Source of the DNA: Candidatus Bathyarchaeota archaeon
GTDB taxonomy: Archaea > Thermoproteota > Bathyarchaeia > 40CM-2-53-6
Direction: 5' to 3'
NCBI GenBank assembly: GCA_963845275.1
Contig: CAWJRR010000008.1
Span: 3,129 to 67,128, forward strand
DNA length: 64,000 nt
The notes below the pieces were generated by a model, which worked only from the letters and a program-made list of their open reading frames with translations, had not been told where the DNA came from and made no database searches. Of the stretch, positions 23,839 to 48,627 are shown in pieces. Within the stretch, counting starts at the first letter, position 1. Each line of letters begins with the position of its first letter. A program made the translations under genes and the position numbers.

Positions 23839-26208
23839 TCACTGTCGTGTCATGGCTAGGTGAAGGCGTTGTTCGGGTGTGATGAGATGGTCGTGACTGT
23901 CTAAGCCCAAGTCGATCTGCACCCATTTGATCTTCCCGGTAAATTCGCTCTCTTGTGTTGGATAGTCAGGAGTCACGTTCGTGCCGGTCTCGTGACCGAT
24001 ATCAGCCCCTCGTCACCAGAGAAGGCCATAGGTTGGGTAACCTCAACTCGTCCTTCGCCAGCCTTCTGCCCATCATAGTATACAGTTACGTTACCGCCCT
24101 TTCCCAATCCGCCCCCATCATACTTGAACTCCATACGGACCTGATGCTCGCCCGACGGAATCGGTTTCGTTGCCTCTGTCGTGAAGAGTTTAAGGCCAAG
24201 GAAGTTGTACGCGAATTTTGCTTTGCCAGCTTTCGTATAGAGACTCCACCCGCCGAATTTCCGGCTTGATGGATGATTACTCCTTCCGCTCCGGCAGTGG
24301 GAACCACGAGTTCTGCCGTGACGGACCAAGACTTATTCTTGATACTCACGACGCTGCTTTCTAAGAGGCGCCCCATTCCAGCGAAGAATAGTTGCGAATT
24401 TCCTTTGATTAGTTGCGGACGTCCAGCCAAATCGGCGTTAAAGCGTTCGAATGTTCTATCATCCAAGGGTAATACGTTATACTTTGTCGCCTCAATCAAC
24501 CATAGGCGTTGGAGTTCAGCCAGTTTCTCCGGCATCTCTTTCGATAAGTCATGCGCCTGAGTCCAGTCCTTGCTACCATCATAAAGTTCCCAGTTATCCT
24601 TATCAAACGGCGGCGGCTGTCCGGGACCCAAGGTGTGCGATGCTTCGTAACCGCACTCCAACCCTTATAGTAAATCCCACGGTTACAAAACATCTCAAAG
24701 TATTGCAGGTCACGTCGTTCTGGGGCCTTGGCATCGTTGAAACTGTACAGCATACTCTTACCTTCCATCGGCGACTGCATAACACCATTCACTATGGTCG
24801 GCTCAGGAATACCAGCTGCTTCAAGAATTGTTGGGGCAACGTCGATAACGTGGCAGAACTGGTTACGGATCGCATTCTTCTCCTTAATGCCTTTCGGCCA
24901 ATGAATTATCGTACCGTTCCTCGTGCCACCCCAATGAGACGCCACCTGCTTAGTCCACTGGTACGGCGTATCCATAGCCCACGCCCAACCCACCGCATAG
25001 TGATTATACGCGTCTGGCGAGCCAAACTTGTCAAGTTTCGATAAGAGAAACTCAGGGGTCTCGACACCAGTAATCCAGTTCAACAGAATCATTTCATTGA
25101 ACGAGCCCTGAAGTGTTCCTTCAGCAGAAGCTCCGTTGTCGCCTATGATCACGAAGATTAACGTGTCATCCATGATTCCAAGGTCTTCAATCGCGTCGAT
25201 GACCCGACCTACTTGATGATCCGTGTGCGACAGGAAACCCGCGTAAACCTCCATCTCCCTCTCAAGAACTGGTTTGAGCTTCGGATCCATCGCGTCCCAA
25301 GCGGGGATCTCCGCATGGCGTTTAGTTAACTCAGCATTCTGCGGAATGACGCCCAGCGCTTTCTGTTTCTGGAATGTGATCTCCCGTTGCTTATCCCAGC
25401 CATGCGCGAATTTGCCCTTGTACTTGTCCGCCCACTCCTTAGGAACATGATGAGGCGCGTGAGTGGCGCCAGGGGCGAAATAAGCGAAGAACGGCTTGTC
25501 AGGCATCAAAGCCTTCTGCTGACGAATCCACGCAATCGTCCTGTCCGCCAGATCCTCAGTCAGGTGGTAACCTTGCTCAGGGGTTCTGGGGGGTTCGACG
25601 GGGACGGTGCCATTGTAAAGGCCGGGATACCATTGGTTAGTTTCGCCACCGATGAATCCGTAGAAGTATTCAAAGCCACCCCCTCCCACCGGCCAATGAT
25701 CAAAAGGTCCCAACGGAGACGTCTGCCAAACAGGCACTTCGTGGCATTTTCCGAACTGGGCGGTTGAATATCCGTTCAGCTTCAACGTCATCGCTAACGC
25801 AGCTTTGGTGTTCGAGCACAGTGAGTTGTAGCCTGGGGCCGAGGTCGCTGTCTCCGTGACCCCACCCATACCCGTTGAATGATGATTCCTTCCAGTCAGT
25901 AACGCTTGCCGGGTTGGTGAACAAAGAGCCGTAGTATGAAACCGAGTGTACCGTAAACCTCCCGATGCGAGTTTCTCAAAGTTCGGCGTGTAACATGGTC
26001 CACCAAACGCGCTGGATGAACCGAACCCCGCGTCATCAATCAGCACGATCAGAACATTAGGAGCACCCACAGGTGGCCGTATCTCTCTGATCGGAGGATA
26101 CTTCGTATCCGGATCCTTCGCATCATAAGTTGTCAAACCAAACTGTGGTCGGTCAGGAATTGGCAGAATGCTACGTTCAACCTTAGCGGAATCAGTCGAT
26201 GATGACAT
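23839..26208 (-). pseudogene. Arylsulfatase (Cys-type, ~790-aa class) with at least three frameshifts
   Basis: ORFs 24496-26208, 24086-24661 and 23973-24329, plus an unlisted tail (..TGTNVTPDY..KIKWVQIDLGLDSHDHLITPEQRLHLAMTRQ, stop at 23839-23841), are colinear with the intact paralog 29733-32114. Frame changes lie near 24621-24630, 24258-24260 and 24006-24009. Confidence 0.85.
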
Positions 26209-26426
26209 AACAAGTCAATATTACACTAGGCTCTTTACAGAAATAACATTTTGCCGAAAAGTCCTTTCATGACAGCGCGAGAAAAAGGAGGAAGAGCCCT
26301 TAAGATTCATAGGGCAAGCTTCCAGTAGCCGTTATCATCCGTCTCTCCTACAAGAAGTCATAGAGCAGCAGAATTTGAACGTCTCGAAAAGAAATGAAGG
26401 AGAGACTCTGGCGACGTTACTGAAAC

Positions 26427-26858: not shown

Positions 26859-27179
26859 TTTTTCACCTCCTACTCACTTCACGTTGGGTACTTACTGCCC
26901 TTGTGTTCCCTTAGAGTTCCGACTCGCAGAGAATACAGCAGCCGCATTCAAACGCGGACTAGCGACGAATCGCAAGCTCGGTAAGTGAGTGCGGCGAAGT
27001 AGGTAGTTATCGCTTGCCATTCCGTAGGGCATGGTTGGGCGTGTGCGGATCGTGGCGTGGATGAGGAGGATGAAGAAGTTTCTGGAGAAGAGAGCGAAGA
27101 TGCATGTAACTCCTAGTTCCACGCTCGGCTGGTAGCAATCTTGAAGAATGTCCGGGGAAACATTGTGGTCGAACCCTAG

Positions 27180-27728: not shown

Positions 27729-27866
27729 TTCGCTATGTATTCTCGCCCTACAGCAGCTTAATGGAACAGTTAGCCACTAAACTCAAGCGCTTGCGTCGTC
27801 AGAGAAGCCGGGGGTTCCTACGCAACTAGTCTGATCTATTCTAGAGAGTGAACGGGTGGTTCTGTT

Positions 27867-28244: not shown

Positions 28245-28248
28245 CCCT

Positions 28249-29732: not shown

Positions 29733-32114
29733 ATGTCTATGAAAAGCGTTGTTGAGAAATCCGCTGATTCAGTTAAGGTTGAGCGTAGTATTCTGCCTAT
29801 CCCTGATCGACCGCAGTTTGGTTTAACAACTTATGATGCGAAGGATCCGGATACTAAGTATCCGCCAATCAAGGAAGTACGACCACCGGCAGGCGCGCCG
29901 AACGTCCTAATTGTCCTGATTGATGACGCGGGGTTTGGTTCATCCAGCGCGTTTGGTGGACCATGTTACACGCCGAATTTTGAGAAGCTTGCAGCGGAAG
30001 GGTTACGGTACACGCGCTTCCACACTACCGCCCTCTGTTCCCCCACTAGGCAGGCGCTTCTGACCGGCCGTAACCATCATTCGGCTGGGATGGGAGGAGT
30101 CACCGAGATAGCCACCTCGGCTCCTGGCTACAATTCACTTTGCCCGAACACTAAGGCTCCGCTGGCTATGACGCTGAAACTGAACGGGTACTCAACTGCC
30201 CAGTTCGGTAAATGCCATGAGGTTCCGGTCTGGCAGACCTCTTCCTTGGGGCCGTTTGATCACTGGCCCACTGGTGGAGGAGGCTTCGAATATTTCTACG
30301 GCTTCATTGCAGGCGAAACCAACCAGTGGAATCCGGCGCTCTTCAACGCTACTGTCACCGTTGAACCACCAAAAACACCTGAGGAAGGCTACATTCTCAA
30401 TGAGGATCTTGCGGACAAAGCGATTGCGTGGATTCGTCAGCAGAAAGCGTTGATGCCCGACAAACCGTTCTTCGTCTACTTCGCCCCTGGCGCTACTCAC
30501 GCGCCTCATCATGTTCCTAAGGAGTGGGCGGACAAATACAAGGGGAAGTTCGCTCACGGATGGGACCAGCAACGCGAGATCACGTTCAAGAAACAGAAAG
30601 AGTTAGGTGTCATTCCACCTGACGCGGAGTTGACTAAGCGCCACGCCGAGATCCCAGCGTGGGATTCAATGGATCCAAAACTTAAACCAGTCTTGGAACG
30701 CGAAATGGAAGTGTACGCAGGATTCATGGAGCATACTGACCATCATGTAGGACGAGTAATAGACGCGATCAGAGATCTTGGAATCATGGACGACACACTC
30801 ATCTTCTTGATTGTTGGAGACAACGGCGCATCGGCTGAGGGTACCATACAAGGCACATTTAACGAACTGTTATTGCTAAACGGAGTGACATCGGTCGAAA
30901 CACCAGAATTCCTGACGTCTAAAATCGACAAGTTCGGTTCACCCGATGCGTATAACCACTATGCGGTGGGATGGGCCTGGGCAATGGACACGCCGTACCA
31001 GTGGACCAAACAAGTCGCCTCCCATTGGGGAGGTACGCGAAATGGGACGATCATTCATTGGCCGAAAGGCATTAAGGAGAAGAATGCGATTCGTAACCAG
31101 TTCTCTCACGTTATTGACGTGGCTCCGACAATCCTTGATGTGGCAGGCATCTCCGAACCCACGATTGTAAATAGTGTTATGCAGTCTCCATACGAAGGCA
31201 AGAGCCTGCTCTACACCTTCAATGACCCCAAAGCGCCGGAGCGTCGTGACGTGCAGTACTTTGAGATGTTTGGTAACCGTGGAATCTACTATAAGGGCTG
31301 GACGGCGGTGACGAAGCATCGCACACCCTGGGTCATGGCCCCTACAGTACCCTTCGATCAGGACAACTGGGAACTTTACGCTCCAACAGACTGGAGCCAG
31401 GCACACGATCTTTCTAAGGAGATGCCGGATAAGCTCCGTGAACTTCAACGCTTGTGGCTGATCGAGGCTACCAAGTACAATGTGATTCCGCTCGACGATC
31501 GTGGGTTGGAACGTTTCAATGCTGAGATCGCTGGACGTCCTCAACTGATAAAGGGTAATTCACAGCTACTGTTTGCAGGAATGGGGCGTCTTCCCGAAAA
31601 CGCGCTCTTGAACATCAAGAACAAGTCATGGTCTCTTACCGCCGAGGTTGAAATCCCTTCAGCGGGAGTTCAGGGTGTGATAATGAATCAGGGAGGAAAG
31701 TTCGGCGGCTGGAGCCTCTACACAAAAGCAGGCAAAGCAAAATTCGCGTACAACTTCTTAGGCCTCAAATTCTTCACCATCGAGGCAGACAGACCAATAC
31801 CTGCGGGGAAGCATCAGGTACGAATGGAGTTCAAGTACGATGGCGGAGGACTAGCCAAGGGCGGTAAAGTAACCTTGTACTATGATGGTACGAAAACTGG
31901 AGAGGGCCGCGTTGAGGCCACGATACCGATGGTTGCAACGGAGGAGTCCAACGTGGGCCGTGACATTGGCACGAACGTGACCCCTGACTACATGACTGAA
32001 ACGAGTGAGTTCACTGGAAAAATCAAATGGGTACAAATTGACGTGGGTGTGGATAGCCATGACCACCTCATCACACCCGAACAACGTCTGCACATCGCAA
32101 TGACAAGGCAGTAG
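29733..32114 (+). CDS. Arylsulfatase, Cys-type (formylglycine), no signal peptide
   Basis: 793-aa ORF. It has NVLIVLIDDAGFG and TTALCSPTRQALLTGRNHH (Cys codon at 30036-30038). GDNGAS and the C-terminal domain are conserved with 46231-48627. Confidence 0.9.
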   Translation: MSMKSVVEKSADSVKVERSILPIPDRPQFGLTTYDAKDPDTKYPPIKEVRPPAGAPNVLIVLIDDAGFGSSSAFGGPCYTPNFEKLAAEGLRYTRFHTTALCSPTRQALLTGRNHHSAGMGGVTEIATSAPGYNSLCPNTKAPLAMTLKLNGYSTAQFGKCHEVPVWQTSSLGPFDHWPTGGGGFEYFYGFIAGETNQWNPALFNATVTVEPPKTPEEGYILNEDLADKAIAWIRQQKALMPDKPFFVYFAPGATHAPHHVPKEWADKYKGKFAHGWDQQREITFKKQKELGVIPPDAELTKRHAEIPAWDSMDPKLKPVLEREMEVYAGFMEHTDHHVGRVIDAIRDLGIMDDTLIFLIVGDNGASAEGTIQGTFNELLLLNGVTSVETPEFLTSKIDKFGSPDAYNHYAVGWAWAMDTPYQWTKQVASHWGGTRNGTIIHWPKGIKEKNAIRNQFSHVIDVAPTILDVAGISEPTIVNSVMQSPYEGKSLLYTFNDPKAPERRDVQYFEMFGNRGIYYKGWTAVTKHRTPWVMAPTVPFDQDNWELYAPTDWSQAHDLSKEMPDKLRELQRLWLIEATKYNVIPLDDRGLERFNAEIAGRPQLIKGNSQLLFAGMGRLPENALLNIKNKSWSLTAEVEIPSAGVQGVIMNQGGKFGGWSLYTKAGKAKFAYNFLGLKFFTIEADRPIPAGKHQVRMEFKYDGGGLAKGGKVTLYYDGTKTGEGRVEATIPMVATEESNVGRDIGTNVTPDYMTETSEFTGKIKWVQIDVGVDSHDHLITPEQRLHIAMTRQ

Positions 32115-32336: not shown

Positions 32337-33602
32337 ATGAGCCCACGAGAAGAAGAACACGGATCGACACTTGGCGTGACGGATGAAGTCCGGGATTTCT
32401 ACGAACGTTATCCATATCCTCGGCCGATCGAAAGCCTTGACAATTATCGACGGCTCTGGCAGGACCTGCAAAGACGCCGCGCGGATTATCATCTGTTTTG
32501 GCCCTTCAGACCTTACAGGGACGACTACTCCATTCTCATTGCCGGCTGCGGAACATCTCAGGCGGCCAAGCATGCTTTGCGTTGGCCTGCGGTTCGGGTC
32601 GTCGGTGTCGACTTCAGCGCAACAAGTGTGCGCTGTACTGAGGAGCTCAAGCGAAAATACAGCTTGAACAATCTCCAAGTCCACCAGCTTCCCATCGAAC
32701 GGGTGAACGATCTGGAGATAAGCTTCGATCAGGTTGTGTGCACGGGGGTTCTCCATCACCTTGAGGACTCTGACGCAGGACTCAGAGCTCTCCGCGACGT
32801 GCTCAAACCGGATGGAGCGATGCATCTCATGGTGTATGCGCCTTACGGACGGGCCGGCATCTACTTGCTGCAAGAGTTCTGCAGACGAATCGGCATCCAC
32901 GCTTCCGACGAAGAAATTCGGGACCTCATCGCTGCGCTCGGGGCGTTGCCACCCGGACATCCGCTCGAGAACTTGCTGCGCGAGGCCCCGGACTTTCGGG
33001 AAGAGGCGGCGCTTGCTGATGCTCTTCTGCACCCGCATGACCGCGCGTATTCAGTTCCGCAACTATTCGATTTCATTAAAAGAGGAGGACTGACATTTGG
33101 CCGGTGGATGAGACAAGCACCCTACACTCCTCGCTGCGGAGCCATCGCAAAGATCCCGCAGGCCCCCCGAATCGCACAACTTCCGTTAGCAGAACAGTAT
33201 GCCGCCGTCGAACTCTTTCGGGGCACGATGGTTAGCCACAGCATGGTCCTTTACCGAAACGATAATCCTCACGGCTTACAACAGGTCAGTTTTGCCGGTG
33301 ACAATTGGCTTGGCTATGTGCCGATTCGAATGTCAGACACGATCTGCGTACAAGAGCGACTGCCTGCTGGGGCCGCGGGTGTTCTGATTAACCAGAATCA
33401 CACGTACAGGGATCTGATCATGCCAATAGACTCACCAGAAAAACGTCTGTTTGATGCTGTTGACGGGACCAGTAGCATCCGCAATATATTACAAAGAACG
33501 TTGGCATCTTCACAAGAAAGATCGAAGCTCGACATGGCGCGCACTTTCTTCGAACGACTCTGGTGGTATGATCAGATCGTGTTTCGAACCACGTCAACCT
33601 AG
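32337..33602 (+). CDS. Class I SAM-dependent methyltransferase with a C-terminal domain of unknown function
   Basis: 421-aa ORF. It has ILIAGCGTSQAA (motif I), VVGVDFS and FDQVVCTGVLHHLED..LKPDGAM. Confidence 0.75.
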   Translation: MSPREEEHGSTLGVTDEVRDFYERYPYPRPIESLDNYRRLWQDLQRRRADYHLFWPFRPYRDDYSILIAGCGTSQAAKHALRWPAVRVVGVDFSATSVRCTEELKRKYSLNNLQVHQLPIERVNDLEISFDQVVCTGVLHHLEDSDAGLRALRDVLKPDGAMHLMVYAPYGRAGIYLLQEFCRRIGIHASDEEIRDLIAALGALPPGHPLENLLREAPDFREEAALADALLHPHDRAYSVPQLFDFIKRGGLTFGRWMRQAPYTPRCGAIAKIPQAPRIAQLPLAEQYAAVELFRGTMVSHSMVLYRNDNPHGLQQVSFAGDNWLGYVPIRMSDTICVQERLPAGAAGVLINQNHTYRDLIMPIDSPEKRLFDAVDGTSSIRNILQRTLASSQERSKLDMARTFFERLWWYDQIVFRTTST

Positions 33603-33657
33603 GGCTAAATTAGATAACAACAGTAACCAAATCATACGGAAATAGAGAGAACAGAGA

Positions 33658-35221: not shown

Positions 35222-35280
35222 GCTATCACAGACAATAATGACGGTCAAGGTCTGGGCTATTAAACTGATCAGGTCATGTT

Positions 35281-37060: not shown

Positions 37061-37096
37061 TACATCCACTTCTTGAACAATCCTAGTCACGGCCAA

Positions 37097-38068: not shown

Positions 38069-38191
38069 TTTGCATCAACCCTATAGTGCATCAAGTGTTC
38101 TACATTGAAAATGTTCAGAAAGAAAAAGAAGACTGGAGAACGCGCCTAGATCTCGGCGCGTTCTTTCACTTCACCTTACCGTTAACTACCT

Positions 38192-39715
38192 TTACTTGAC
38201 GCCGCCACCGGAAGCAGATGCAAGAAGGTCATGCTTTTGTCGTGCCCGCTCTAGAGCGTCGCCGATGCTGAAGCTAGAGGGTTTTTGACGTGGCGGGAAC
38301 GCTTCGAACGTTTTGAGGAACTGTCCTACTATGGCTTGGGCTGGCACTAGAAGGAAGACACGATCGCAGAACCATTTGTTCAAGAACATGTCCCCATCCT
38401 CATCGTCCATCTCGAACGGGTTGCTGCGCAGGTTCATGATCAGCGGTACGCGCAATTGGACAAGGGGTTCCGCCCAGACGTGAAAACCGTGGGCACGTTG
38501 TACCATGAAATGGATCTTCCAGTTTCCGTATCGCAGAGCCATGAGTTCGCCGTCGTCACTCCAGTAGAGGAATCCTGGTCGCGGATTCGACTTCACTTCG
38601 CCTTTCCAGAATGGCATTAGGTTGTAGCCATCGAGGTGGACTTTGAAGGTCTTATTGTCTGCCTTGTAACCTTGCTTGAGTTTTTCGACAATGTTCGGTT
38701 CACCGGCTGCAGCCACAAGCGTGGGCAGCATGTCGTTGTGGGCGAAGATTTCGTTACTGACGGTACCGGGTTTGATTACGCCTGGCCAACGGATAAAGCA
38801 TGGCACACGCCAGCCTCCTTCCCAGTTAGTGTCCTTCTCACCTCGGAACGGTGTGACACCACCATCGGGCCAAGTCATTTCTTCGGCGCCGTTGTCGGTG
38901 GCGTACATGACGATAGTATTGTTCGCGATGCCTAACTGATCGATCTTGGCGAGCAATTGTCCGACCATGCCGTCGTGCTCGACCATACCGTCAGCTTCGA
39001 TACCCAAACCTGTCTTTCCAACTGACGCTGGCTTCAGGTGGGTGAATATGTGCATGCGAGTTGAGTTGAACCAGCAGAAGAATGGTTTGCCTTCCTTGGT
39101 TGCCTTATCGATGAACTTCATTGCGCCGTCCAGGAACTCTTCGTCAATGGTCTCCATGCGCTTCATGGTCATGGGGCCGGTGTTCTCGATCTTCTGAGTA
39201 CCATCCGGCATAGCCCAGCTATGCAGCACACCACGCGGACCGAAATTCTTCTTGAAGTTAGGATATTCTGACTCCTTCGGGTAATCAGGACATTCTGGCT
39301 CTTGTTCAGCGTTCAGGTGGTAGAGGTTACCGAAAAATTCGTCGAAGCCGTGAACAGTGGGCAGGAACTCGTCGCGGTCGCCCACGTGGTTCTTTCCGAA
39401 CTGGCCGCACACGTAGCCCTGAGGCTTGAGCATTTCCGCGATTGTGGGGTCCTCCGGTTGCAGGCCTAGTTTTGCACCCGGCAGACCAACCTTCGTAAGG
39501 CCAGTGCGGATGGGTGATTGGCCTGTGATGAAGGCGGCGCGGCCGGCGGTGCAGCTCTGCTGCCCGTACCAGTCAGTAAACATCGCCCCTTCATGAGCGA
39601 CTCGATCGATGTTAGGTGTACGATATCCCATGATTCCGTGATTGTAAGCGCTAATGTTGAACCAGCCAATATCGTCTCCCCAAATTATCAGAATATTCGG
39701 TTTCTTATCAGGCAA
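38192..39715 (-). CDS. Sulfatase, Cys-type with a C-T-A-G-R formylglycine motif, no signal peptide
   Basis: 507-aa ORF. It has NILIIWGDDIGW, QQSCTAGRAAFITGQ (Cys codon at 39551-39553) and TDNGAE. Confidence 0.85.
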   Translation of the reverse strand: MPDKKPNILIIWGDDIGWFNISAYNHGIMGYRTPNIDRVAHEGAMFTDWYGQQSCTAGRAAFITGQSPIRTGLTKVGLPGAKLGLQPEDPTIAEMLKPQGYVCGQFGKNHVGDRDEFLPTVHGFDEFFGNLYHLNAEQEPECPDYPKESEYPNFKKNFGPRGVLHSWAMPDGTQKIENTGPMTMKRMETIDEEFLDGAMKFIDKATKEGKPFFCWFNSTRMHIFTHLKPASVGKTGLGIEADGMVEHDGMVGQLLAKIDQLGIANNTIVMYATDNGAEEMTWPDGGVTPFRGEKDTNWEGGWRVPCFIRWPGVIKPGTVSNEIFAHNDMLPTLVAAAGEPNIVEKLKQGYKADNKTFKVHLDGYNLMPFWKGEVKSNPRPGFLYWSDDGELMALRYGNWKIHFMVQRAHGFHVWAEPLVQLRVPLIMNLRSNPFEMDDEDGDMFLNKWFCDRVFLLVPAQAIVGQFLKTFEAFPPRQKPSSFSIGDALERARQKHDLLASASGGGVK

Positions 39716-39875
39716 AATATATCGGAGGCTATACAGTTATCTAGCAATATAAGTATGTGATTGACCTTGAGAGAAGTGACGATAATACCCTGAAATTCAC
39801 GAAATGTCTCCATCTACAAAACAATACATGCTCACGATGTATTCTGAATCCTTAAAGACACGGCTTGCGATGTAG

Positions 39876-42248
39876 ATGCCAGTGTTGATTATGTCAAAGA
39901 TGGTTGAGTATAAGCCAGGAACTGCGTTCCCCGGTGTGATAGGACGGACGTGGGATCAATCTAGTCCGGCTTGGCCGGCACCTCTCCGCGCTAAACCGGG
40001 CGCGCCTAATGTGCTGTTCATAATTCTTGATGATACAGGTTTTGGACATCTGGGCTGTTTTGGTGGCCTCGTCCAGACGCCGAACTTGGACGCGCTTGCC
40101 GCGAACGGCCTCCGTTATAATAATATGCACACCACGGCGCTATGCTCGCCCACCCGAACCTGCATCATAACTGGACGCAATCATCACTCAAACGGAATGG
40201 CATGCATCACTGAAGGATCCACCGGCTATCCGGGTTACAACGGTAACATCCCGTTCGAGAACGGGTTACTGCCCGAAATGCTATTGCAATATGGCTACAA
40301 CACCTACGCCCTCGGCAAATGGCACATGACCCCCGCCGACCAAATATCTGCGGCCGGCCCATATGATCGCTGGCCACTCGGCCGCGGCTTCGAGCATTAC
40401 TACGGCTTCCTAGGCGGCGACACGAACCAGTGGTATCCGGAGCTTACACGCGACAATCATAGTGTCACACCGCCGAAGACACCCGAAGAAGGCTACCATC
40501 TAACACCTGACCTAGTCGATAATGCAATCAGCTTCATAGTCTCCGCCAAGCAAGTAGCTCCGAACAAACCGTTCTTCATGTACTTCTGCACCGGCACCGC
40601 GCACGCCCCGCACCATGTACCCAAGGAATGGGCTGACAAGTACAAGGGCAAATTTGACGACGGCTGGGACGCTTATCGCGAGAAAGTGTTCGCTAACCAG
40701 AAGAAGATGGGTATCGTTCCCGCGAACGCTGAACTCTCACGCCATGACCCGGACGTACAGGACTGGAACAAACTCAAACCAGAAGAGAAGAAACTCTATG
40801 CTCGCATGATGGAGGTCTTCGCAGGCTTCCTCACCCACGCCGACTACCACATCGGTCGACTCCTCGACTTCCTGAAGACCATTGGTGAGTATGAGAACAC
40901 GCTCATCATGGTCCTATCGGACAACGGCGCCAGCGCAGAAGGCGGACCCACCGGCTCGATCAACGAGAACCGCTTCTTCAACAACGTGCCGGATTCGCTC
41001 GAGGATAACTTGAAGGCGATTGATAAGATCGGCGGAACCGAAACATACAACCATTATGCATGGGGCTGGACCTTCGCGGGCAACACGCCGTTCCGCCGCT
41101 GGAAACGTGAAACCTACCGTGGAGGGGTGAGCGATCCATTCATCGTCCACTGGCCCAAGGGCATCAAGGCGAAGGGCGAAGTACGAACACAGTACGCTCA
41201 CGCAATTGACATGGTACCGACCGTCCTTGAAGCGTTAGGAATCGAACCGCCATCCACCATCAAGGGTGTCACCCAGTCGCCTATCCAAGGCGTCAGTTTT
41301 GCTCATACTTTCGATGATGCGAAGGCGCCCAGTAAACACATCACACAATACTTTGAGATGATGGGGCATCGTTCCATCTATCATGATGGGTGGCGCGCTG
41401 TCTGCCCGTGGCCGGGTCCATCATTCACGGAGGCTGGCAAAGGGTTCGGCGCACCGATCCCCGCTGATATGCTGACTGAGCTAGATGCAAAGCATTGGGA
41501 GCTGTATCATGTGGCAGAGGATTTCGCCGAGAACCATAATGTTGCTGAAGAGAACCGACCAAAACTTATCGAAATGGTAAGTGCGTGGTACGTTGAGGCG
41601 GGTAAGTACAATGTGCTTCCGGTAGATGGTCGCGGAACTTTACGGATGGTTGACCCGCGCCCGGAAATCGCGGTCGATCGTTCAAGCTACACCTACTATC
41701 CGAACTCGGAGCCAGTGCCAACGAATGCGGCTGTTAAAGTGCTTAACCGTTCGCACACCATTACCGCGGACGTCGAGATTCCGAAGGGTGGAGCGGAAGG
41801 AGTACTCCTTATGCATGGTGGCAGCGACGGAGGCTACTCTTTCTACGTGAAGGATGGCAAGCTGCACTACGTCCACAACTACGTGTCGAAGACTCGTTAT
41901 ACTTTCTCGTCTACTACATCTGTGCCAGAGGGCCGTCACAAACTCGCCTACCAGTTCCAGGTTACCGGCAAGCCTGACATAGCGCACGGTAAAGGCACGC
42001 CGGGTCGCGGACAATTATTCATCGACGGAAAGCAGGTCGGACAGGCTGATATACCGATTACGAGTCCTCTCGCCCTCGGACTGAGTAGCGGCTTAGTCTG
42101 CGGAGAAAATCCAGGATCACCAGTCACCCCTGACTATGAATCGCCGTTCAAATTCACGGGCACAATCTACGGCGTGACGGTCGACGTGACCGGAGAACAC
42201 GTTAGGGACCCAGAGGCCGAGCACCGCGCAATCATGGCGCGCCAGTAA
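39876..42248 (+). CDS. Arylsulfatase, Cys-type, ~790-aa class, no signal peptide
   Basis: 790-aa ORF. It has NVLFIILDDTGFG, TTALCSPTRTCIITGRNHH and SDNGAS. The C-terminal domain is colinear with the other long sulfatases. Confidence 0.85.
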   Translation: MPVLIMSKMVEYKPGTAFPGVIGRTWDQSSPAWPAPLRAKPGAPNVLFIILDDTGFGHLGCFGGLVQTPNLDALAANGLRYNNMHTTALCSPTRTCIITGRNHHSNGMACITEGSTGYPGYNGNIPFENGLLPEMLLQYGYNTYALGKWHMTPADQISAAGPYDRWPLGRGFEHYYGFLGGDTNQWYPELTRDNHSVTPPKTPEEGYHLTPDLVDNAISFIVSAKQVAPNKPFFMYFCTGTAHAPHHVPKEWADKYKGKFDDGWDAYREKVFANQKKMGIVPANAELSRHDPDVQDWNKLKPEEKKLYARMMEVFAGFLTHADYHIGRLLDFLKTIGEYENTLIMVLSDNGASAEGGPTGSINENRFFNNVPDSLEDNLKAIDKIGGTETYNHYAWGWTFAGNTPFRRWKRETYRGGVSDPFIVHWPKGIKAKGEVRTQYAHAIDMVPTVLEALGIEPPSTIKGVTQSPIQGVSFAHTFDDAKAPSKHITQYFEMMGHRSIYHDGWRAVCPWPGPSFTEAGKGFGAPIPADMLTELDAKHWELYHVAEDFAENHNVAEENRPKLIEMVSAWYVEAGKYNVLPVDGRGTLRMVDPRPEIAVDRSSYTYYPNSEPVPTNAAVKVLNRSHTITADVEIPKGGAEGVLLMHGGSDGGYSFYVKDGKLHYVHNYVSKTRYTFSSTTSVPEGRHKLAYQFQVTGKPDIAHGKGTPGRGQLFIDGKQVGQADIPITSPLALGLSSGLVCGENPGSPVTPDYESPFKFTGTIYGVTVDVTGEHVRDPEAEHRAIMARQ

Positions 42249-42412
42249 AACAAGGACGAAGGCCTACCTAAAATCGATCCCATGACCTCTAGGAGTCAGC
42301 TAAGGTCAGCAAGACACACAGAGGTCTACGACTACGGACAAGCGACATACGGCAAACCATATAACTTGTTGAACACAGCATCCGACGCACATTCTACAGG
42401 ATTTGGAGTCGC

Positions 42413-43201
42413 ATGAATTTCTGGGATCTCCCCCTCTTCACTCTCAGCTTTACAACCTTCACCATAGTTGACCTCCTGGCTGCGACAACAAATGCGTTCA
42501 ACGGTGCACTGCTCTGTCGAAGCCCCTCTCATTATCGCAATTATACTAGTCGTTGGAATCATCTTGATGGCTTTGCTTGGGCGGAATCGGCGGAGGAGTA
42601 TCCCGTGACGTTCTCCTGAATAAGATTCCGTCAGCCTTCACTAATCCGCTGTACGTTTTGCTGTGTGTCGTAGCAGCCAATCATTGCTTTGCAGATACAC
42701 TATAGGACTGGCCAGGCGTTCCGTGAGGGATTGTTCACGTTCATGACCGCTTTCTCCTTGCCCTGGTATGCGGTGGTTGGATGTGATGCGGCTTTGAGAG
42801 CAGGTCTCCCAGCCTTGGCGGCGATCGTTATCGGAATTGTTGGACCGACTGCTGGACGATACTTCATCGACATAACCTCGGGTGTAACACCGACGCATTT
42901 CGTGAGAGGGCGAATGGTTTGTGGGCACAGCCGTCCTAACAAGCGCTGTTTACGTTGTTTGCTATTGGTCTGGGACTTTCTTTAGTTCCGGCGAGTCTCA
43001 TCTCCTTCGCCGTAGGATTCACGTTCCGCCTCACCGCGCTGCACAAGGGCTGGGAGGAACCTGAGCCGATAGACCAGCCGCAAAAAGCCCGAACCCCCAA
43101 CAGAAACCCTAGGCACCCCGAAGGAAGAATTGGAAAAGCTAGAGAAGGCGAGAAAGGAAGAGCTAGAGAAGGAGAGGGCGGCTGGAAAAACAGGAGAATA
43201 A
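42413..43201 (+). pseudogene. UPF0126/TRIC-like membrane protein, heavily frameshifted
   Basis: Family-like peptides are readable only by hopping frames: IVDLLAATTNAFNGALLCRS / IIAIILVVGIILMALLG / GGIGGGVSRDVLLNKIPSAF..VVAA / IIALQIHY..AVVGCDAALRAGLPALAAIVIGIVGPTAGRYFIDI / GEWFVGTAVLTSAVYVV / FAIGLGLSLVPASLISFAVGFTFRLTALHKGWEEPEP / KKPEPPTE..EELEKLEKARKEELEKERAAGKTGE-stop (43199-43201). Confidence 0.65.
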
Positions 43202-43204
43202 TGC

Positions 43205-43795
43205 ATGAGCAGTAGTGACGCGAAGTCTGGAAAGGCGCAAAGAAAGACGTGGTTGCCCTATCTCATTCGCGGAATACTGGGCATAATCATCGCCGTCAAC
43301 TTGATTCAGTTCGTTTTCATCCGGGAAAAAGGCCCCAACTTTCCATTCTACATGGGACTGTTCTTCCTCTTCAACGGTATCCTCAGCTTCAAGGAAGCCC
43401 GAGCGGAACCCGTCAAGAGTACCGGGTTAATCCTAGCTGCATTAGCCAGCATTATCGGCGGCCTAGTCTTATTCATCGTCTACCCGTTCTCTCCCTTTCG
43501 TCAAACGTTAGTAACAACTGACCTCGGCAGGTATTCGTTGGGCGCGATTGTGATCATTATCGGCTTACTACAAATGGGAGGGACATTGCACATAACCCCC
43601 GAGCCAGTACTGAAACAAGCCCATCTCGTATTCGGTTTCTTGGAAGTGATGCTGGGCATCGCAGTCATCGCCTCATCCATCGAGGTAGCGGTCATTATTG
43701 GATTCGTTTGGGTAATTCTTGTCGCAGTATACATGTTCTACGTGGTGCATCGTCTCCGCACGTCACTGATAGGTTCCGCGATGGCGAAATCATAA
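43205..43795 (+). CDS. DUF308/HdeD-like integral membrane protein
   Basis: 196-aa ORF with six hydrophobic helices and the RGILGIIIAV pattern. Confidence 0.5.
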   Translation: MSSSDAKSGKAQRKTWLPYLIRGILGIIIAVNLIQFVFIREKGPNFPFYMGLFFLFNGILSFKEARAEPVKSTGLILAALASIIGGLVLFIVYPFSPFRQTLVTTDLGRYSLGAIVIIIGLLQMGGTLHITPEPVLKQAHLVFGFLEVMLGIAVIASSIEVAVIIGFVWVILVAVYMFYVVHRLRTSLIGSAMAKS

Positions 43796-44238
43796 ATCAC
43801 AATTTAATCGATGAATCATCCTGCGGTCCATAGCCGCTATCGCTTGATAGGGCGGGGAGTGTTTTGGAGTTCTGAAGGTGCCTGAGGAACGTGTACAAGT
43901 GGTCAGATAGGGAACATTACATAGGGCGCTCCGCTATTGCGAGGTGTGCTCGCGGTGGTGAATTCGAATGGCAAAAAGTAGTTTTTGGCATTGGCGCCGC
44001 GAAGGTAACGTTCAATACTCAAAAGAGGAAAAATCTGCAGAGAATCATTAAGCTGCATGAGAAAACCGCCGCCTTTCACAGCGGCAATTCAGGCGGGGAT
44101 AAAATTCAATCTACCGTCCCCGAGAATTTCCTGTGTTTCTTCCGTACGTAATTCTTGCCCGATCAGATCCAATAACTCATGGTCTTAGAATTTGTAATCT
44201 ATAGGGGCATCTATAAGTCGGGGCCACTATTACAGCCC

Positions 44239-44610
44239 ATGTCGGATCGAACATTCCTGTGCAACTGCCAAAAGTGCGGAACCGAATTCGAATTTACAGG
44301 AACCTATGAGAAATTCAATGAATTCATGGATTCAAAGAACTTCAGTTGCCCAAGTGGCCATAAAGAAAACAGTCGTCCGCGAGCTTTTCTCAAGGTGACA
44401 AAGATGAGTGAACCTCAACCAACCGTAGAGTGGAAACCAGCTGAAGGCAGAATTTACGTAAATGTTCTCGACTATCAAACCGCCCGAATCCGAGGAATGC
44501 AATTAGATCACCTTGGTTCAGGGCTGTACATTGATCGACGAACACGAAAGAAATACGACTACGAAGAGGACGCGAAAGGAATCCGACACTACTTCGAAGT
44601 CATAGCTTGA
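44239..44610 (+). CDS. Hypothetical Cys-containing protein
   Basis: ATG at 44239 (MSDRTFLCNCQKCGTEFEF....FSCPSGH) is preferred over the listed start at 44179. Confidence 0.4.
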   Translation: MSDRTFLCNCQKCGTEFEFTGTYEKFNEFMDSKNFSCPSGHKENSRPRAFLKVTKMSEPQPTVEWKPAEGRIYVNVLDYQTARIRGMQLDHLGSGLYIDRRTRKKYDYEEDAKGIRHYFEVIA

Positions 44611-44742
44611 TCACAGCGTTCAAGAACATACCTGATCCCTAGTCACCCATTCAAGTCGGCCAATTACGCCGATTAAAGTGAGGACCGCTAGGGAATTGCT
44701 TTTTTGGGCTATCTTGCGTAGCGTGGTGGTGAGCGCGCGACG

Positions 44743-45999
44743 TCAGGGGCGACGCGGATTCTTGTTCACAAGCGAGGAAACCGAGCATTGAACGATCGTT
44801 GATGAAGTTGCAAAGGCAAAGCGTGGGTATGGTTGCTGCGAGCCTTTTAGCACTCCAGCTCCAACCCAGGTCACGTAACTCATATCCTTAGCGAATTGAG
44901 TCAAGTCCTTGAATGCTCCGTTCTGGTACGAGAGGAGCATTCCTCCGTGCAACTTTGAATATCCGCCAAAAATCCAGGAAGAGTGGGTAAACGCAAGTGT
45001 GAGTATACTCGAAGTTTGCGTTCTGACGTACGATGGCAGTGATTGTGATAGGTCTGCGAATCCGAATGAGGAATAGGTTATCGCCCATGCTCTACCAGGA
45101 AGAAGTTGAGCTACAGGAGGACCGCCAGCCAGCATCCACTCGTAACCATCCCACGCCATCGCGTTAACAGTAAAGTCCGCACCCAGCCGCGAATTTAACC
45201 CAGACGTCAAATCAACGAAGTTGCGGCCATCATAGCTGGCCAGAAAGTTGACACCGCCAATTAACCAGTACCGCCCGTTCCATCCAATCGCTTGGACAGG
45301 CCCGAACGTTCGGAGACTCTTTACAGCATGAGTAGTCAGATCAGTAGGCTTGGCGCCATCGAAAGAGAACAGTACCCTGCGGAAGCGACCGTATCCACCG
45401 CCCACTAACCAATACTTGCCGTTCCATGCGTTCGCGTAAAGGATCGCGTCATCCTGCCTTGGAACCAAAGCGGATAGGTCAGTGAAATGGTACCCGTCGA
45501 ATGTTCCTAGCGACATGTGATTGAACGCTTGCTTTGACACGCCGGGCAGAGCGTCAGAGCCTAGACCTGAAAGTAGCCAATGCCTGCCGTTATAGCTGGC
45601 GCTGAATACGTCTCCGCCACTCCAGGAACCTGCTTGCCCGTAATTATCAAGCGAACCCTCAGCTACGACGTTCATGCCATCATACAAACAGACATACGGC
45701 CCAAGGGAAGCATCATCGCTACCCCATCCGGAAATCAACCATTGTGAACCATTCCAGCCCCCACCCCACACAGTGCCTTCACTTGAAACGGGAGCCAGCT
45801 TTGTGACGGAGTAATCTGAGAGCAGGATCCTGTACAGCCTAGGCGCCTGACCGCGCTTGAACCAAGTCCCATTCTGACCACCAACTAGAATATACTGACT
45901 TTCTGATTGAATCGGTATTCCACCGGATGGAGAACCTTGAGCGATTGAGAACACGGTGACTGCCGTCACGATAAGAAGAATCGCAACGATCAGAAGCAT
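44743..45999 (-). CDS. N-anchored beta-propeller-like repeat protein (WNG..WL.GG blades)
   Basis: 418-aa ORF with a TM anchor. Blades recur about every 50-60 aa: GGGWNGSQWLISGWG, SYNGRHWLLSGLG, AWNGKYWLVGGGYG, GWNGRYWLIGGVN and AWDGYEWMLAGG. Each is followed by ..(Y/F)DG..F.DL(S/T). Confidence 0.6.
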   Translation of the reverse strand: MLLIVAILLIVTAVTVFSIAQGSPSGGIPIQSESQYILVGGQNGTWFKRGQAPRLYRILLSDYSVTKLAPVSSEGTVWGGGWNGSQWLISGWGSDDASLGPYVCLYDGMNVVAEGSLDNYGQAGSWSGGDVFSASYNGRHWLLSGLGSDALPGVSKQAFNHMSLGTFDGYHFTDLSALVPRQDDAILYANAWNGKYWLVGGGYGRFRRVLFSFDGAKPTDLTTHAVKSLRTFGPVQAIGWNGRYWLIGGVNFLASYDGRNFVDLTSGLNSRLGADFTVNAMAWDGYEWMLAGGPPVAQLLPGRAWAITYSSFGFADLSQSLPSYVRTQTSSILTLAFTHSSWIFGGYSKLHGGMLLSYQNGAFKDLTQFAKDMSYVTWVGAGVLKGSQQPYPRFAFATSSTIVQCSVSSLVNKNPRRP

Positions 46000-46230
46000 G
46001 AGAGACGAAATTGATCGCGTTCTTAGTACACCCGATCCGCAGCGAGAGAGCGATTAATGATCGATCTTGCAGTTCACATTTAGTTCTTTCCATAAGACTA
46101 GGTTCAATTTGCTCCAATAATCTGAGGCGACAATTCTACCGCGAACAAGATAGGGCAACGACTTTCTACCGTCTATATTACGCATTAAAGGAAAAGAAGG
46201 GCGCTACGGGCCGCCCTTTCGTTAGATCTC

Positions 46231-48627
46231 CTACTGTATTGACATGTGTATGCGGAATCGTTCCTCTGGCGTGATCAGGTGATCATGGCTGTCGGAACCC
46301 ACGTCGATCTGAACCCACCGAACCTTACCCGTGAAGTCGTTTCCTCTTACCCCGAAGTCTTTGCAGATCGGGGCCCCCGTCTTGTTCCCGACCTCGGTTA
46401 CTGAGTCTGCCGAGAAAACTACAGCGTGCGTATGTTCCACACGACCTTGACCTACCTGCTTCCCGTCAACGTAGAGTGTCGCCACGCCTCCTTTCCCGAG
46501 CCCGCCGCCATCGTACTTGAACTCCATGCGTACTTGGTGTTTTCCTTCCGGCAGGGTTTCAGACGCTTCCACCATGTAGGTCTCCATGCCGAGGAAGTTG
46601 TAGACATACTTGAGCCTCCCCTGATACGCGTATAGAGCCCATCCGCCGAAGTTTCCGCCCTGAGCAACTATCACTCCTTTAACACCTGGAGCCAATCGAG
46701 GAAGGCGTGTCGCTTTTGGTACCTCGATATTGGCTGTGACTTGATGCGACTTATTCTTGATGTCGATCGTAGTATTGTCGCCACCGAAGTATGCTATGCC
46801 CGGAAAGAGGAGCTGAGTGTTTCCGCTGATTAGTTGAGGCCGGCCCGCCATTGCGGGTATCATCCGCTCGGCCTTCCGGTCATCTAAAGGTAGCACGTTA
46901 TGGCGCGTAGCCTCTATCAACCATAGTCGCTGAAGTTCGTGAAGCTTTTCTGGGTTCGTCTTCGAGATGTCTTCCGCCTGAGTCCAGTCTGTTGGAGCGT
47001 AGAGTTCCCAGACATCATCATCGAATGCTCGCAACTTCTCCGCTGTGAGAAGCCAGGGCGTGCTGTGCTTGGTGACTGCGGTCCAGCCCTTGTAGTATAT
47101 GCCTCGGTTACAGAACATTTCAAAGTACTGAAGCTCGCGGTGCTCAGGAGCTTTGGGATCATCGAACGTGTACGCCATACTCACTCCCTCCATTGGATGC
47201 TGTCCGACACCGTCCACGTTGCGTGGTTCAGGGATTCCTGCCACGTCGAGAATGGTTGGAGCAATGTCGATCACGTGATGGAACTGAGTCCTGATTTGAC
47301 CTTTCGATTTAATGCGGCTAGGCCAGTGAATTATCGTACCGTTCCTCGTGCCACCCCAGTGGGAAGCCACTTGCTTCGTCCACTGGTAGGGTGTGTTCAT
47401 GGCATGAGCCCAGCCCACCGCATAATGATTGTAGGAGTCTCTTCCACCAAAGTCATCCAGGTGCTTCATCAAGTATTCAGGAGTCTCAAGTTCTCCAGCC
47501 CCGTTGAAGTTGCCCATCTCGTTGAAAGTTCCGTTAAGTGTGCCTTCAGCAGAAGCGCCATTGTCGCCTATGATGTAGATTACGAGGGTCTCGTCCAGGA
47601 TCCCTAGGTCCTTCAACGCGTCAATTAATCTGCCAACATGATGGTCGGTAAACTCCATGAAACCTGCGTACACTTCCATTTCGCGCCTGAGTACGGGTTT
47701 CAGGTTTTCTGGCATCGCGTCCCACGCAGGTATCTCTTTGTGTCTCGCAGTCAGCTTCGCATCACTGGGGATGACTCCGAGTTGCTTCTGTTTTGCGAAG
47801 GTACGTTCGCGGAGCTTATCCCAGCCATCGTCAAACTTACCCTTGTACTTATCAGCCCACTCCTTCGGAACATGATGGGGTGCATGTGTAGCACCGGGGG
47901 CGAAGTAGACGAAGAAAGGCTTGTCCGGTGCAGTTGCCTTCTGCGCGCGAATGTAGGAAATCGCCTTATCGGTCATATCAGGAACTAAATGATATTCCGG
48001 ATCGTCGGGAAGCTCAACTCGAGTCGTATTATCGAGAAGCTCCGGGAACCACTGGTTGGTCTCCCCTGCCTGGAAACCGTAGAACCGTTCGAATCCACCG
48101 CCGCCTGCTGGCCAATGTTCCATGGGGCCGATCACGTTATTCTCCCACACTGGAACTTCGTGGCATTTACCGAACTGAGCTGTTGAGTACCCATTTAATT
48201 TCAGGATCTTAGCAACCGGCGCCATATTATTCATACGCATAGAGGTGTAGCCTGGGATAGCGGTCGCTGTTTCAGTAATGGAACCCATCCCAGCCGTATG
48301 ATGGTTACGACCGGTCAGCAACGCTTGACGTGTCGGCGAACAAAGAGCAGTCGTATGGAAACGCGTATACCTGAGACCTTCAGAAGCAAGCCTCTCCGCG
48401 GTAGGCGTATTACACGGTCCACCAAACGCGCTAGACGAACCAAAACCTGCATCGTCAATCAGAATCAGAAGCACGTTAGGCGCTCCAGGAGGAGGACGCA
48501 CGGGCTTAATGGCAGCGAATTTCGAATCCGGATCCTTAGCGTCATAAAGAATAGGCCCAGCGTAAGCGAGGTCAGGTATAGGTAAACTCGACCGGTAACC
48601 TGCCAACGGATCTTTCGAAGATGACAT
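46231..48627 (-). CDS. Arylsulfatase, Cys-type, ~800-aa class, no signal peptide
   Basis: 798-aa ORF. It has NVLLILIDDAGFG, TTALCSPTRQALLTGRNHH and GDNGAS, and is colinear with 29733-32114. Confidence 0.9.
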   Translation of the reverse strand: MSSSKDPLAGYRSSLPIPDLAYAGPILYDAKDPDSKFAAIKPVRPPPGAPNVLLILIDDAGFGSSSAFGGPCNTPTAERLASEGLRYTRFHTTALCSPTRQALLTGRNHHTAGMGSITETATAIPGYTSMRMNNMAPVAKILKLNGYSTAQFGKCHEVPVWENNVIGPMEHWPAGGGGFERFYGFQAGETNQWFPELLDNTTRVELPDDPEYHLVPDMTDKAISYIRAQKATAPDKPFFVYFAPGATHAPHHVPKEWADKYKGKFDDGWDKLRERTFAKQKQLGVIPSDAKLTARHKEIPAWDAMPENLKPVLRREMEVYAGFMEFTDHHVGRLIDALKDLGILDETLVIYIIGDNGASAEGTLNGTFNEMGNFNGAGELETPEYLMKHLDDFGGRDSYNHYAVGWAHAMNTPYQWTKQVASHWGGTRNGTIIHWPSRIKSKGQIRTQFHHVIDIAPTILDVAGIPEPRNVDGVGQHPMEGVSMAYTFDDPKAPEHRELQYFEMFCNRGIYYKGWTAVTKHSTPWLLTAEKLRAFDDDVWELYAPTDWTQAEDISKTNPEKLHELQRLWLIEATRHNVLPLDDRKAERMIPAMAGRPQLISGNTQLLFPGIAYFGGDNTTIDIKNKSHQVTANIEVPKATRLPRLAPGVKGVIVAQGGNFGGWALYAYQGRLKYVYNFLGMETYMVEASETLPEGKHQVRMEFKYDGGGLGKGGVATLYVDGKQVGQGRVEHTHAVVFSADSVTEVGNKTGAPICKDFGVRGNDFTGKVRWVQIDVGSDSHDHLITPEERFRIHMSIQ

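Follow-up and report, generated by a model that had tools for sequence, protein, structure and literature searches.

The arylsulfatase of Pseudomonas aeruginosa, known as AtsA or PAS, is a leaderless enzyme of the cytoplasm. It is also the type member of SulfAtlas subfamily S1_4, and the same 2016 classification placed archaeal formylglycine (FGly) sulfatases only in Methanomicrobia and Halobacteria and proposed that they had been acquired horizontally from bacteria (PMC5066984). Two kinds of maturase matter here, the formylglycine-generating enzyme (FGE) and the anaerobic sulfatase-maturating enzyme (anSME), and their co-occurrence has been described in anaerobic Kiritimatiellales, for which large numbers of predicted cytoplasmic sulfatases have also been reported (PMC6388578). 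Our subject is a stretch of 64,000 nucleotides (the whole of which we call the window) from contig CAWJRR010000008.1 of a Candidatus Bathyarchaeota archaeon, with five sulfatase genes, one FGE and two anSMEs. How did an archaeon come by such a set, and is the set still in working order? We argue that it is probably a bacterial-type set of cytoplasmic, FGly-dependent sulfatases with two maturation systems, acquired horizontally from Acidobacteriota-like bacteria of peat or soil and inserted into a Bathyarchaeia gene backbone (ppk1-CYTH ... UPF0126-membrane protein ... ABM).

The source is a metagenome-assembled genome (MAG) of 2.26 Mb in 23 contigs, 78.5% complete and with 4% contamination. Genes in the window were identified from a listing of open reading frames (ORFs) and from Pfam and NCBIfam scans at curated cut-offs (25 bits for the sulfatase domain PF00884, 349.45 bits for the anSME equivalog TIGR03942). 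Three samples provide the comparisons: 80 loci taken from a genome collection around relatives of the FGE (78 of them labelled bacterial) and searched with the window proteins, with neighbours counted within 10 kb; 80 metagenome loci centred on long sulfatases; and 151 genomes of the same class, 11 of them from the same family. For synteny and dN/dS we have used a sister MAG from a peat bog, 'Candidatus Bathyarchaeia archaeon SPRUCE 253' (locus L008). The genes at the center of the argument are these:

23839-26208, minus strand: frameshifted paralogue of the long arylsulfatases, CSPTR motif (PF00884, 218 bits over the first 570 residues)
29733-32114, plus strand: long arylsulfatase, 793 residues, CSPTR motif (PF00884, 217 bits)
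32337-33602, plus strand: class I SAM methyltransferase, 421 residues (Methyltransf_12/25/11; PDB 8HKR, E 1.4e-57)
33658-34578, plus strand: HAD-family hydrolase, 306 residues (structural-genomics entry 4OVY, E 1e-129)
35281-36631, minus strand: anSME 1, a radical-SAM/SPASM protein (TIGR03942, 500.6 bits)
37097-38068, minus strand: FGE of the oxygen-dependent type, leaderless (PF03781, 291.6 bits)
38192-39715, minus strand: Cys-type sulfatase, 507 residues, CTAGR motif, leaderless (PF00884, 160.6 bits)
39876-42248, plus strand: long arylsulfatase, 790 residues, CSPTR motif, divergent from the 507-residue gene (PF00884, 221 bits)
46231-48627, minus strand: long arylsulfatase, 798 residues, CSPTR motif (PF00884, 226 bits)
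57393-58736, plus strand: anSME 2, intact (TIGR03942, 508.6 bits)

S1 sulfatase, FGE, anSME and SulP permease are all known families, and each component belongs clearly to one of them; every gene named in the first-pass annotation of the window turned up at or near the place it gave. All five sulfatase copies in the window score between 160 and 226 bits with PF00884. A sixth sulfatase, of 777 residues, leaderless and with CSPTR, lies on contig C6 (locus L002), and the genome as a whole encodes six sulfatases, one FGE and two anSMEs; outside the window it has no further FGE and no further anSME. In an alignment with PAS, ten catalytic and metal-binding residues (D13, D14, C51, R55, K113, H115, H211, D317, N318 and K375) are kept in all six enzymes, and the PehA equivalog model reaches only 28-67 bits against a cut-off of 900. 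The first-pass annotation had taken these genes for sulfatases and had counted four CSPTR enzymes of about 790 residues, with the copy at 23839-26208 decayed, and one CTAGR enzyme of 507 residues at 38192-39715; this account stands, with three of the long copies intact and one frameshifted. The latter shares 76% of its DNA sequence with 29733-32114, and its N-terminal 570 residues are unbroken and keep CSPTR and the catalytic residues, but its last third can be followed only through three frame changes (near 24620, 24257 and 24010-24024), and it is probably pseudogenised. All in all, the enzymes of the window and of contig C6 are predicted to be genuine formylglycine-dependent S1 sulfatases.

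How close do the solved structures come? For the 793-residue enzyme the best matches are both of the P. aeruginosa arylsulfatase (4CXK, E 1.5e-62, and the wild-type 1HDH, 1.2e-61), which is also the best solved match to all three long sulfatases (E about 1e-62, residues 55-577) and which shares with them the ten residues of catalysis and calcium binding as well as the Cys-type C-x-P-x-R motif. Judged by closest solved structure rather than by SulfAtlas subfamily models, then, the long enzymes may be called S1_4-like. They differ from PAS in being about 250 residues longer, with a conserved 50-residue extension at the N-terminus and a ConA/LamG-like domain at the C-terminus, which the 793-residue copy carries; the 798-residue copy is 67% identical to it and keeps the catalytic residues. 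The 507-residue enzyme finds its closest structures in PsFucS1 (7AJ0, E 6e-60), an S1_13 sulfatase (PMC8484680), and in human ARSA (E 3e-49), and on the same footing (structures, not subfamily models) it would be S1_13/ARSA-like. PsFucS1 has CTSSR where the 507-residue enzyme has CTAGR, and, to judge from the alignment offset, a longer N-terminus.

The case for a bacterial origin begins with the nearest relatives of these genes. The 793-residue sulfatase has thousands of homologues, of which the best 120 are 72-95% identical and 779-806 residues long; the named ones include Planktothrix, Phormidium, Methylomirabilota, Desulfobacterales and Methanotrichaceae, that is, the named matches (73-83% identical) are mostly bacterial (cyanobacteria, Methylomirabilota, Desulfobacterales), with one Methanotrichaceae archaeon among them. 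The 790-residue sulfatase is 97-98% identical to its SPRUCE 253 orthologue and 74% to a copy in a deltaproteobacterial MAG (L083). For the FGE the closest match is again SPRUCE 253, at 93%, and the next best, at 70-76%, come almost entirely from Acidobacteriaceae soil and peat MAGs; a maximum-likelihood tree places it within a clade of 34 sequences dominated by Acidobacteriota (support 98/88). The methyltransferase, the HAD hydrolase and the 507- and 790-residue sulfatases are 60-76% identical to bacterial copies in FGE loci.

It is not only the single genes that have bacterial counterparts. Five Acidobacteria loci (L011, L017, L018, L021 and L031) have an anSME close to the FGE together with further families of the island, and three of these (L017, L021 and L031) hold all five families: long sulfatase, anSME, CTAGR sulfatase, FGE and methyltransferase. 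The Acidobacteriaceae loci thus gather the same gene families, both maturases included, within 10 kb; the CTAGR sulfatase precedes the FGE, as it does in the window; the proteins are 52-76% identical to those of the window; and the FGE belongs to the same well-supported clade. The overall gene order differs, and the bacterial loci are without ABM. Their anSME lies downstream of the long sulfatase in L017, L018 and L021 (directly so in the last two), whereas anSME 1 of the window follows the FGE and ABM, and the window contains additional sulfatase copies as well as interspersed genes of the archaeal backbone.

Within the class, a sulfatase domain above the cut-off was found in 44 of the 151 genomes and in none of the 11 from the same family; the FGE domain was found in 5 and an anSME above its cut-off in 10, and this genome is the only one of the 151 with both. 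The first-pass annotation had pointed to the presence of both maturation routes in one archaeal locus; this is nothing peculiar to archaea, for the Acidobacteriaceae loci have the same set and in the Kiritimatiellales the co-occurrence was already known. Kiritimatiellales strains F1 and F21 likewise combine FGE-domain genes, an anSME and many predicted cytoplasmic sulfatases in one genome (PMC6388578), but they are marine and encode hundreds of mostly exported polysaccharide sulfatases, whereas our peat archaeon has six leaderless, arylsulfatase-like enzymes.

If the island came from elsewhere, into what was it inserted? Its GC content is 0.52, against 0.485 for the genome, and three related contigs free of sulfatases (L169, L170 and L172) share a gene order of ppk1, CYTH, DUF308, UPF0126, a 192-residue membrane protein, small ORFs, ABM and cytochrome bd oxidase genes. 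The window contains every gene of this backbone (36701-53346), partly inverted and with sulfatase genes interleaved. L168, a further relative among the contigs, has no FGE but does have a frameshifted long sulfatase immediately upstream of ABM. The backbone region looks like a recurrent insertion site. Its members nearest to the sulfatases are:

36701-37096, minus strand: ABM-domain protein, YgiN-like (PF03992)
42413-43201, plus strand: UPF0126/Gly_transporter-family membrane protein of the native backbone, broken by frame changes (tblastn of the intact 261-residue SPRUCE 253 orthologue gives three pieces in three frames)
43205-43795, plus strand: multi-pass membrane protein of 196 residues, native backbone (weak DUF308 match)

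The SPRUCE 253 copy of the UPF0126 protein matches PF03458, and orthologues of the 196-residue protein follow UPF0126 in that MAG as well as in L169, L170 and L172. The SPRUCE 253 locus is in fact syntenic with the window over a whole series of genes (a 418-residue protein, the 196-residue membrane protein, UPF0126, the 790- and 507-residue sulfatases, the FGE, ABM and anSME 1), at protein identities that run from 75% (the 196-residue protein) to 98% (the 790-residue sulfatase), a correspondence that speaks for assigning the window to Bathyarchaeia. The 418-residue protein (44743-45999), membrane-anchored and built of repeats, has no Pfam match; its SPRUCE 253 orthologue is 80% identical, and it has paralogues on two other contigs of the genome, C2 and C4, the latter apparently frameshifted. 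On L168, at 3218-4751, a nickel regulator and transporter pair, NikR-NicO, sits between ABM and the orthologue of the 790-residue sulfatase.

The ABM gene deserves a word of its own, for the first-pass annotation had described it as translationally abutted to the FGE. The contact exists if a TTG start is used, in which case the ABM ORF begins right after the FGE stop codon; most ABM homologues are called at 119-120 residues, however, which corresponds to an ATG 36 nt downstream of that TTG, and the contact looks like a by-product of insertion. We found 55 homologues of ABM, none below 61% identity; a single one of them is labelled with its organism, and that is a Bathyarchaeia MAG. The GC content of the gene is 0.46, below the 0.52 of the island. 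ABM is thus native to the Bathyarchaeia backbone and sits at a site prone to insertions, and because it belongs to that backbone its contact with the FGE probably results from insertion. We also considered a functionally coupled FGE-ABM pair and rejected it: ABM is absent from the other 79 FGE loci, relatives carry it in the backbone without FGE or sulfatases, and the internal ATG is the usual start.

A skeptic could reply that nothing was transferred at all and that a bacterial contig has simply been binned with an archaeon. The nearest relatives of the island genes are bacterial, after all, and the MAG does contain 4% contamination. We regard this as extremely improbable. The same 67-kb contig encodes a pyruvoyl arginine decarboxylase, a KaiC-archaeosortase operon and PEF-type anchors, all archaeal in type; for the interleaved ABM, UPF0126, 196-residue and 418-residue genes relatives turned up only in contigs of this lineage (the labelled ones being Bathyarchaeia MAGs) or as paralogues within the genome itself; and an independently assembled Bathyarchaeia MAG, SPRUCE 253, has the same arrangement. 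The locus extends the pattern of archaeal transfer proposed with SulfAtlas in 2016 to Bathyarchaeia, and is a well-resolved case of it.

In which compartment would these enzymes work? None of the proteins has a twin-arginine pair in its first 40 residues, and within the first 70 no stretch is hydrophobic except the conserved first beta-strand, PNVLIVLIDD. Signal peptides hidden by mis-called starts were also considered and are ruled out, for upstream of every start codon there are at most 11 in-frame codons before a stop. The absence of hydrophobic signal peptides, already remarked upon in the first-pass annotation, is thus borne out, and the sulfatases are predicted to be cytoplasmic, with neither a Sec nor a Tat leader. 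This is a family trait and nothing special to the archaeon, as bacterial homologues at 73-95% identity are leaderless too. We read eleven close homologues from end to end (cyanobacteria, Methylomirabilota, Desulfobacterales, Methanotrichaceae and metagenomes), and all of them share the hydrophilic 50-residue extension (...ILPIPD...TTYDAKDP...) and lack a leader; the bacterial relatives of the 507-residue enzyme also begin at the first strand, with M..K(Q/K)PNILILWGDD.

The gene at 37097-38068 is predicted to be an FGE proper, one that would carry out the Cu(I)- and oxygen-dependent conversion of cysteine to FGly. It aligns with human FGE (1Y1E, E 4e-68) over residues 12-320, with both catalytic cysteines in register (GGSHLCAPNYCLRYRPAAR; ...LCAPNYC... 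= ...MCHRSYC...), and the similarity to prokaryotic FGEs (M. tuberculosis Rv0712, S. coelicolor 2Q17/6MUJ, T. curvata 5NXL) as well as to the human enzyme extends over the full length, at E values of 1e-63 to 4e-68. What sets it apart from the characterized FGEs is its archaeal host; its dependence on copper and oxygen is a prediction, and so is its substrate range.

The anSMEs were placed by the first-pass annotation at 35281-36631 and 57393-58736, and both are there, above the cut-off; what it did not see is that the first forms part of an ORF of 669 residues (34622-36631) with its tail frameshifted. Relative to the 457-residue SPRUCE 253 orthologue, anSME 1 has one extra base after about codon 408, which throws a SEC-C-like tail out of frame and makes the reading frame run into the next gene (34622-35221); the extra base may be a genuine change or a fault of the assembly. 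Its catalytic core is unbroken and the cluster motifs CNLDCAYC, ...CVFDKTCG...SCD and ...LCAGYK can be read in the translation. The intact anSME 2, 63% identical to anSME 1, matches the C. perfringens enzyme anSMEcpe (4K36) at E 2e-63; the CX3CX2C motif and every cysteine of the auxiliary clusters are in register. Both window proteins exceed the TIGR03942 cut-off and, like anSMEcpe, retain CX3CX2C along with the cysteines of the two auxiliary clusters; the differences from it are that the window holds two paralogues in one locus and that the anSME 1 orthologue bears the SEC-C-like CPCGSG tail that is frameshifted here. The gene into which anSME 1 runs is this:

34622-35221, minus strand: small secreted or anchored protein with a signal peptide and a PEF-type C-terminal anchor (from the translation of ORF 34622-36631)

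It is fused to anSME 1 by read-through in the assembly and has no part in sulfatase function.

Which maturase serves which sulfatase? The neighborhoods of FGE genes offer an answer. Relatives of the 507-residue sulfatase (40-66% identical, with one extra copy at 29%) are the commonest neighbor, found near the FGE in 43 of the 80 loci and often just 8-400 bp away, and CTAGR is invariant in the 40 FGE-linked copies whose N-terminus can be read. After them come the HAD hydrolase (20 loci), the methyltransferase (18), an anSME (6) and ABM (1, in the sister archaeon). Homologues of the 8HKR-like methyltransferase in these loci (L011, L028, L035, L057, L083 and others) are 52-76% identical to that of the window and usually accompany the CTAGR sulfatase; for the HAD hydrolase of the window the HAD-IB match falls below the cut-off. 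Both genes belong to an FGE-linked bacterial module. The structure 8HKR is of M. tuberculosis Rv2067c, which has been described as a secreted histone H3K79 methyltransferase (PMC10739865); the linkage of Rv2067c-like proteins to FGE and CTAGR sulfatases in soil bacteria suggests a different, sulfatase-related native role.

A quite different assignment can be proposed, and the first-pass annotation did propose it: a division of labor in which maturation of the CxPxR sulfatases falls to the FGE and that of the CTAGR enzyme to the anSMEs. The idea likely goes back to an older statement that FGE activates CXPXR sulfatases and anSME modifies the SXPXR and CXAXR types (PMC2459300), and it can draw on the report, in a review, that human FGE is specific for the proline-containing form. 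The same review has bacterial FGEs, those of M. tuberculosis and S. coelicolor, accepting both CTPSR and CTAGR (PMC12054377), which matches the two motifs of the window, and the genomic evidence goes the same way. CTAGR sulfatases adjoin the FGE more often than any other gene does. In all five Acidobacteria loci named above the anSME is in the same cluster as the FGE, standing directly after a long CSPTR sulfatase in L018 and L021 and directly before the CTAGR sulfatase in L011, L017, L021 and L031. A relative from the class (G139) has four long sulfatases and an anSME without any FGE. We think a partition of this kind very unlikely. An exclusive pairing of long sulfatases with anSME, at which the Acidobacteria loci hint, was dropped in its turn, for among the 80 long-sulfatase loci an anSME is near in 5 and an FGE in 4, with both in one of them (L141). 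The sensible reading is that the two maturases provide redundancy by oxygen regime and not a partition by motif.

As for transport, the first-pass annotation saw no obvious importer. It had overlooked one gene:

48838-50583, plus strand: SulP/STAS anion permease (PF00916, 253.9 bits; PF01740, 34.1 bits)

This gene is divergent from that of the 798-residue sulfatase, some 210 bp away. A second SulP (PF00916, 320.4 bits; STAS, 72.1 bits) lies 171 bp upstream of the sixth sulfatase on contig C6, on the same strand (the pair at L002 8270-12501), so that SulP stands beside a sulfatase twice in this genome, which has three SulP-like permeases in total. Very large secreted proteins are encoded close to that locus on C6, and archaeal F420-biosynthesis genes further along. 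Trios of long sulfatase, SulP and maturase also occur in metagenome loci L133, L135 and L145. Could SulP be a strongly conserved partner of sulfatases? That notion we abandoned, as SulP is present in only 4 of the 80 loci of the FGE-centered set and 4 of the 80 of the long-sulfatase set. It remains the best candidate for the movement of sulfate or a sulfate ester, not an established partner. Pfam scans of most window ORFs of at least 120 residues turned up SulP, an EamA transporter and the broken UPF0126 gene, but nothing of the ABC type; in lacking an AtsRBC-type ABC transporter the window differs from the Pseudomonas Ats system.

How, then, might the whole set operate? The sulfatases would be made in the cytoplasm without leaders, and their active-site cysteine (in CSPTR for the long enzymes, in CTAGR for the 507-residue enzyme) would be converted to formylglycine, by the copper- and oxygen-dependent FGE when oxygen is present and by either of the radical-SAM anSMEs when it is absent. 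The mature enzymes would hydrolyze small imported sulfate esters, and the adjacent SulP permeases would move sulfate or a sulfate ester across the membrane. An oxygen-dependent FGE is plausible in this organism because the genome encodes subunit I of a haem-copper oxidase (COX1, 503 bits) and subunit I of cytochrome bd (147 bits). Both oxidase types are thus present in a member of a class usually regarded as anaerobic. The suggestion of the first-pass annotation that this is a life across oxygen regimes fits these genes, and peat has a water table that moves, consistent with alternating regimes (PMC12296737).

What would the archaeon gain? One answer is sulfur: sulfate freed from organic esters could be a sulfur source or an electron acceptor in sulfate-poor peat, much as the Pseudomonas arylsulfatase serves in sulfate starvation, with SulP taking the sulfate up. 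The closest solved relative is the P. aeruginosa enzyme itself, the closest relatives of the genes come from a peat bog, and SulP is a sulfate-permease family; for peat bog, moreover, it has been proposed that sulfate cleaved from organic matter sustains anaerobic respiration, and sulfite reduction is encoded in some Bathyarchaeia MAGs (PMC12296737). Against this, the genome has no visible route from sulfate to sulfide: a search of all of it, 78.5% complete as it is and the evidence correspondingly weak, found neither ATP sulfurylase (PF01747) nor a sulfite/nitrite reductase domain (PF01077), and for PAPS_reduct nothing that exceeded the cut-off. Sulfur scavenging seems to us possible but doubtful. 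Because no sulfate-reduction genes were found, we slightly favor a gain from the desulfated carbon skeleton over a supply of sulfur. If the absence of the sulfur genes is real and does not merely reflect the missing 21% of the genome, then the archaeon would profit from the desulfated carbon compound, the sulfate set free would be a by-product, and SulP could serve to export it.

Several points weigh against the account that we prefer, that of a bacterial set acquired from Acidobacteriota-like donors and put to use. The donor lineage rests on present-day best matches, and the immediate sub-clade of the FGE also has sequences from Nitrosopolaris, Niastella and Ignavibacteria. The substrates, the role and direction of SulP, the assignment of maturases to sulfatases and the physiological purpose are all predicted from the genes. 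The link of SulP to sulfatases is weak outside this genome. With a MAG of this completeness and contamination, the absence of sulfur genes and the presence of oxidases could each be binning artefacts. Finally, one sulfatase copy, the tail of anSME 1 and UPF0126 are frameshifted in the window, and the SPRUCE 253 FGE has a TGA at codon 15 (L008 10043-10045) in place of Trp15, where MIWIPGG becomes MI-stop-IPGG. That TGA could be a recent inactivation, be bypassed by a restart at a downstream Met, or be a sequencing error, and part of the island may be decaying.

Might the whole island, then, be a relic, an acquisition that no longer functions and is on its way to being lost? The broken genes just listed (the sulfatase copy with three frameshifts, the shifted anSME 1 tail, UPF0126, the FGE stop in SPRUCE 253) speak for that, as does the related contig L168, on which both long sulfatases are frameshifted. 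The frameshifts are confined to a few genes, and about 40 kb of neighboring coding sequence, including several genes of 2-2.4 kb, is unbroken; this clustering in particular genes argues for real gene decay more than for random assembly error, even if some of the frameshifts may be assembly errors. Yet four window sulfatases, the FGE and anSME 2 are unbroken, with all catalytic residues kept, and the comparison with SPRUCE 253 gives dN/dS values of 0.04 for the 790-residue sulfatase, 0.10 for the 507-residue sulfatase, 0.08 for the FGE and 0.07 for the core of anSME 1, next to 0.24-0.28 for the native neighbors (ABM and the 196- and 418-residue proteins). Because such values hold at a synonymous divergence (dS) of 0.22-0.55, they show long purifying selection after acquisition, and they indicate that the island genes have been kept functional in the archaeal host. 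That the island as a whole is a relic we therefore judge to be improbable.

What does all this add? Three things are new in a modest way: the passage of a sulfatase set with dual maturation from one domain to another, into peat Bathyarchaeia; comparative evidence for CTAGR sulfatases as the usual partner of FGE; and a conserved, uncharacterized FGE neighborhood made up of a CTAGR sulfatase, an Rv2067c-like methyltransferase and a 4OVY-like HAD hydrolase. One can go further, although only tentatively, and imagine that prokaryotic FGE has its native genomic partner in the widespread, leaderless CTAGR family of the 507-residue enzyme, that the four-gene module with the methyltransferase and the hydrolase runs an organosulfate pathway in soil and peat microbes, and that its transfer together with long arylsulfatases and anSMEs newly enabled a lineage of peat Bathyarchaeia to use organic sulfate esters in oxic as well as anoxic surroundings.

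The locus leaves unchanged our understanding of how sulfatases or their maturases work. It does lend comparative-genomic support to the view that prokaryotic FGEs naturally serve CTAGR sulfatases, and not only CxPxR ones, and it flags a conserved, uncharacterized module of sulfatase, methyltransferase and HAD hydrolase centered on FGE. Ester sulfates are a large sulfur pool in peat and soil, where Bathyarchaeia are abundant and little is known of what they do in sulfur and carbon turnover; one peat lineage among them has, it would seem, acquired a complete and selectively maintained bacterial-type toolkit for cytoplasmic desulfation, predicted to be activatable with or without oxygen.

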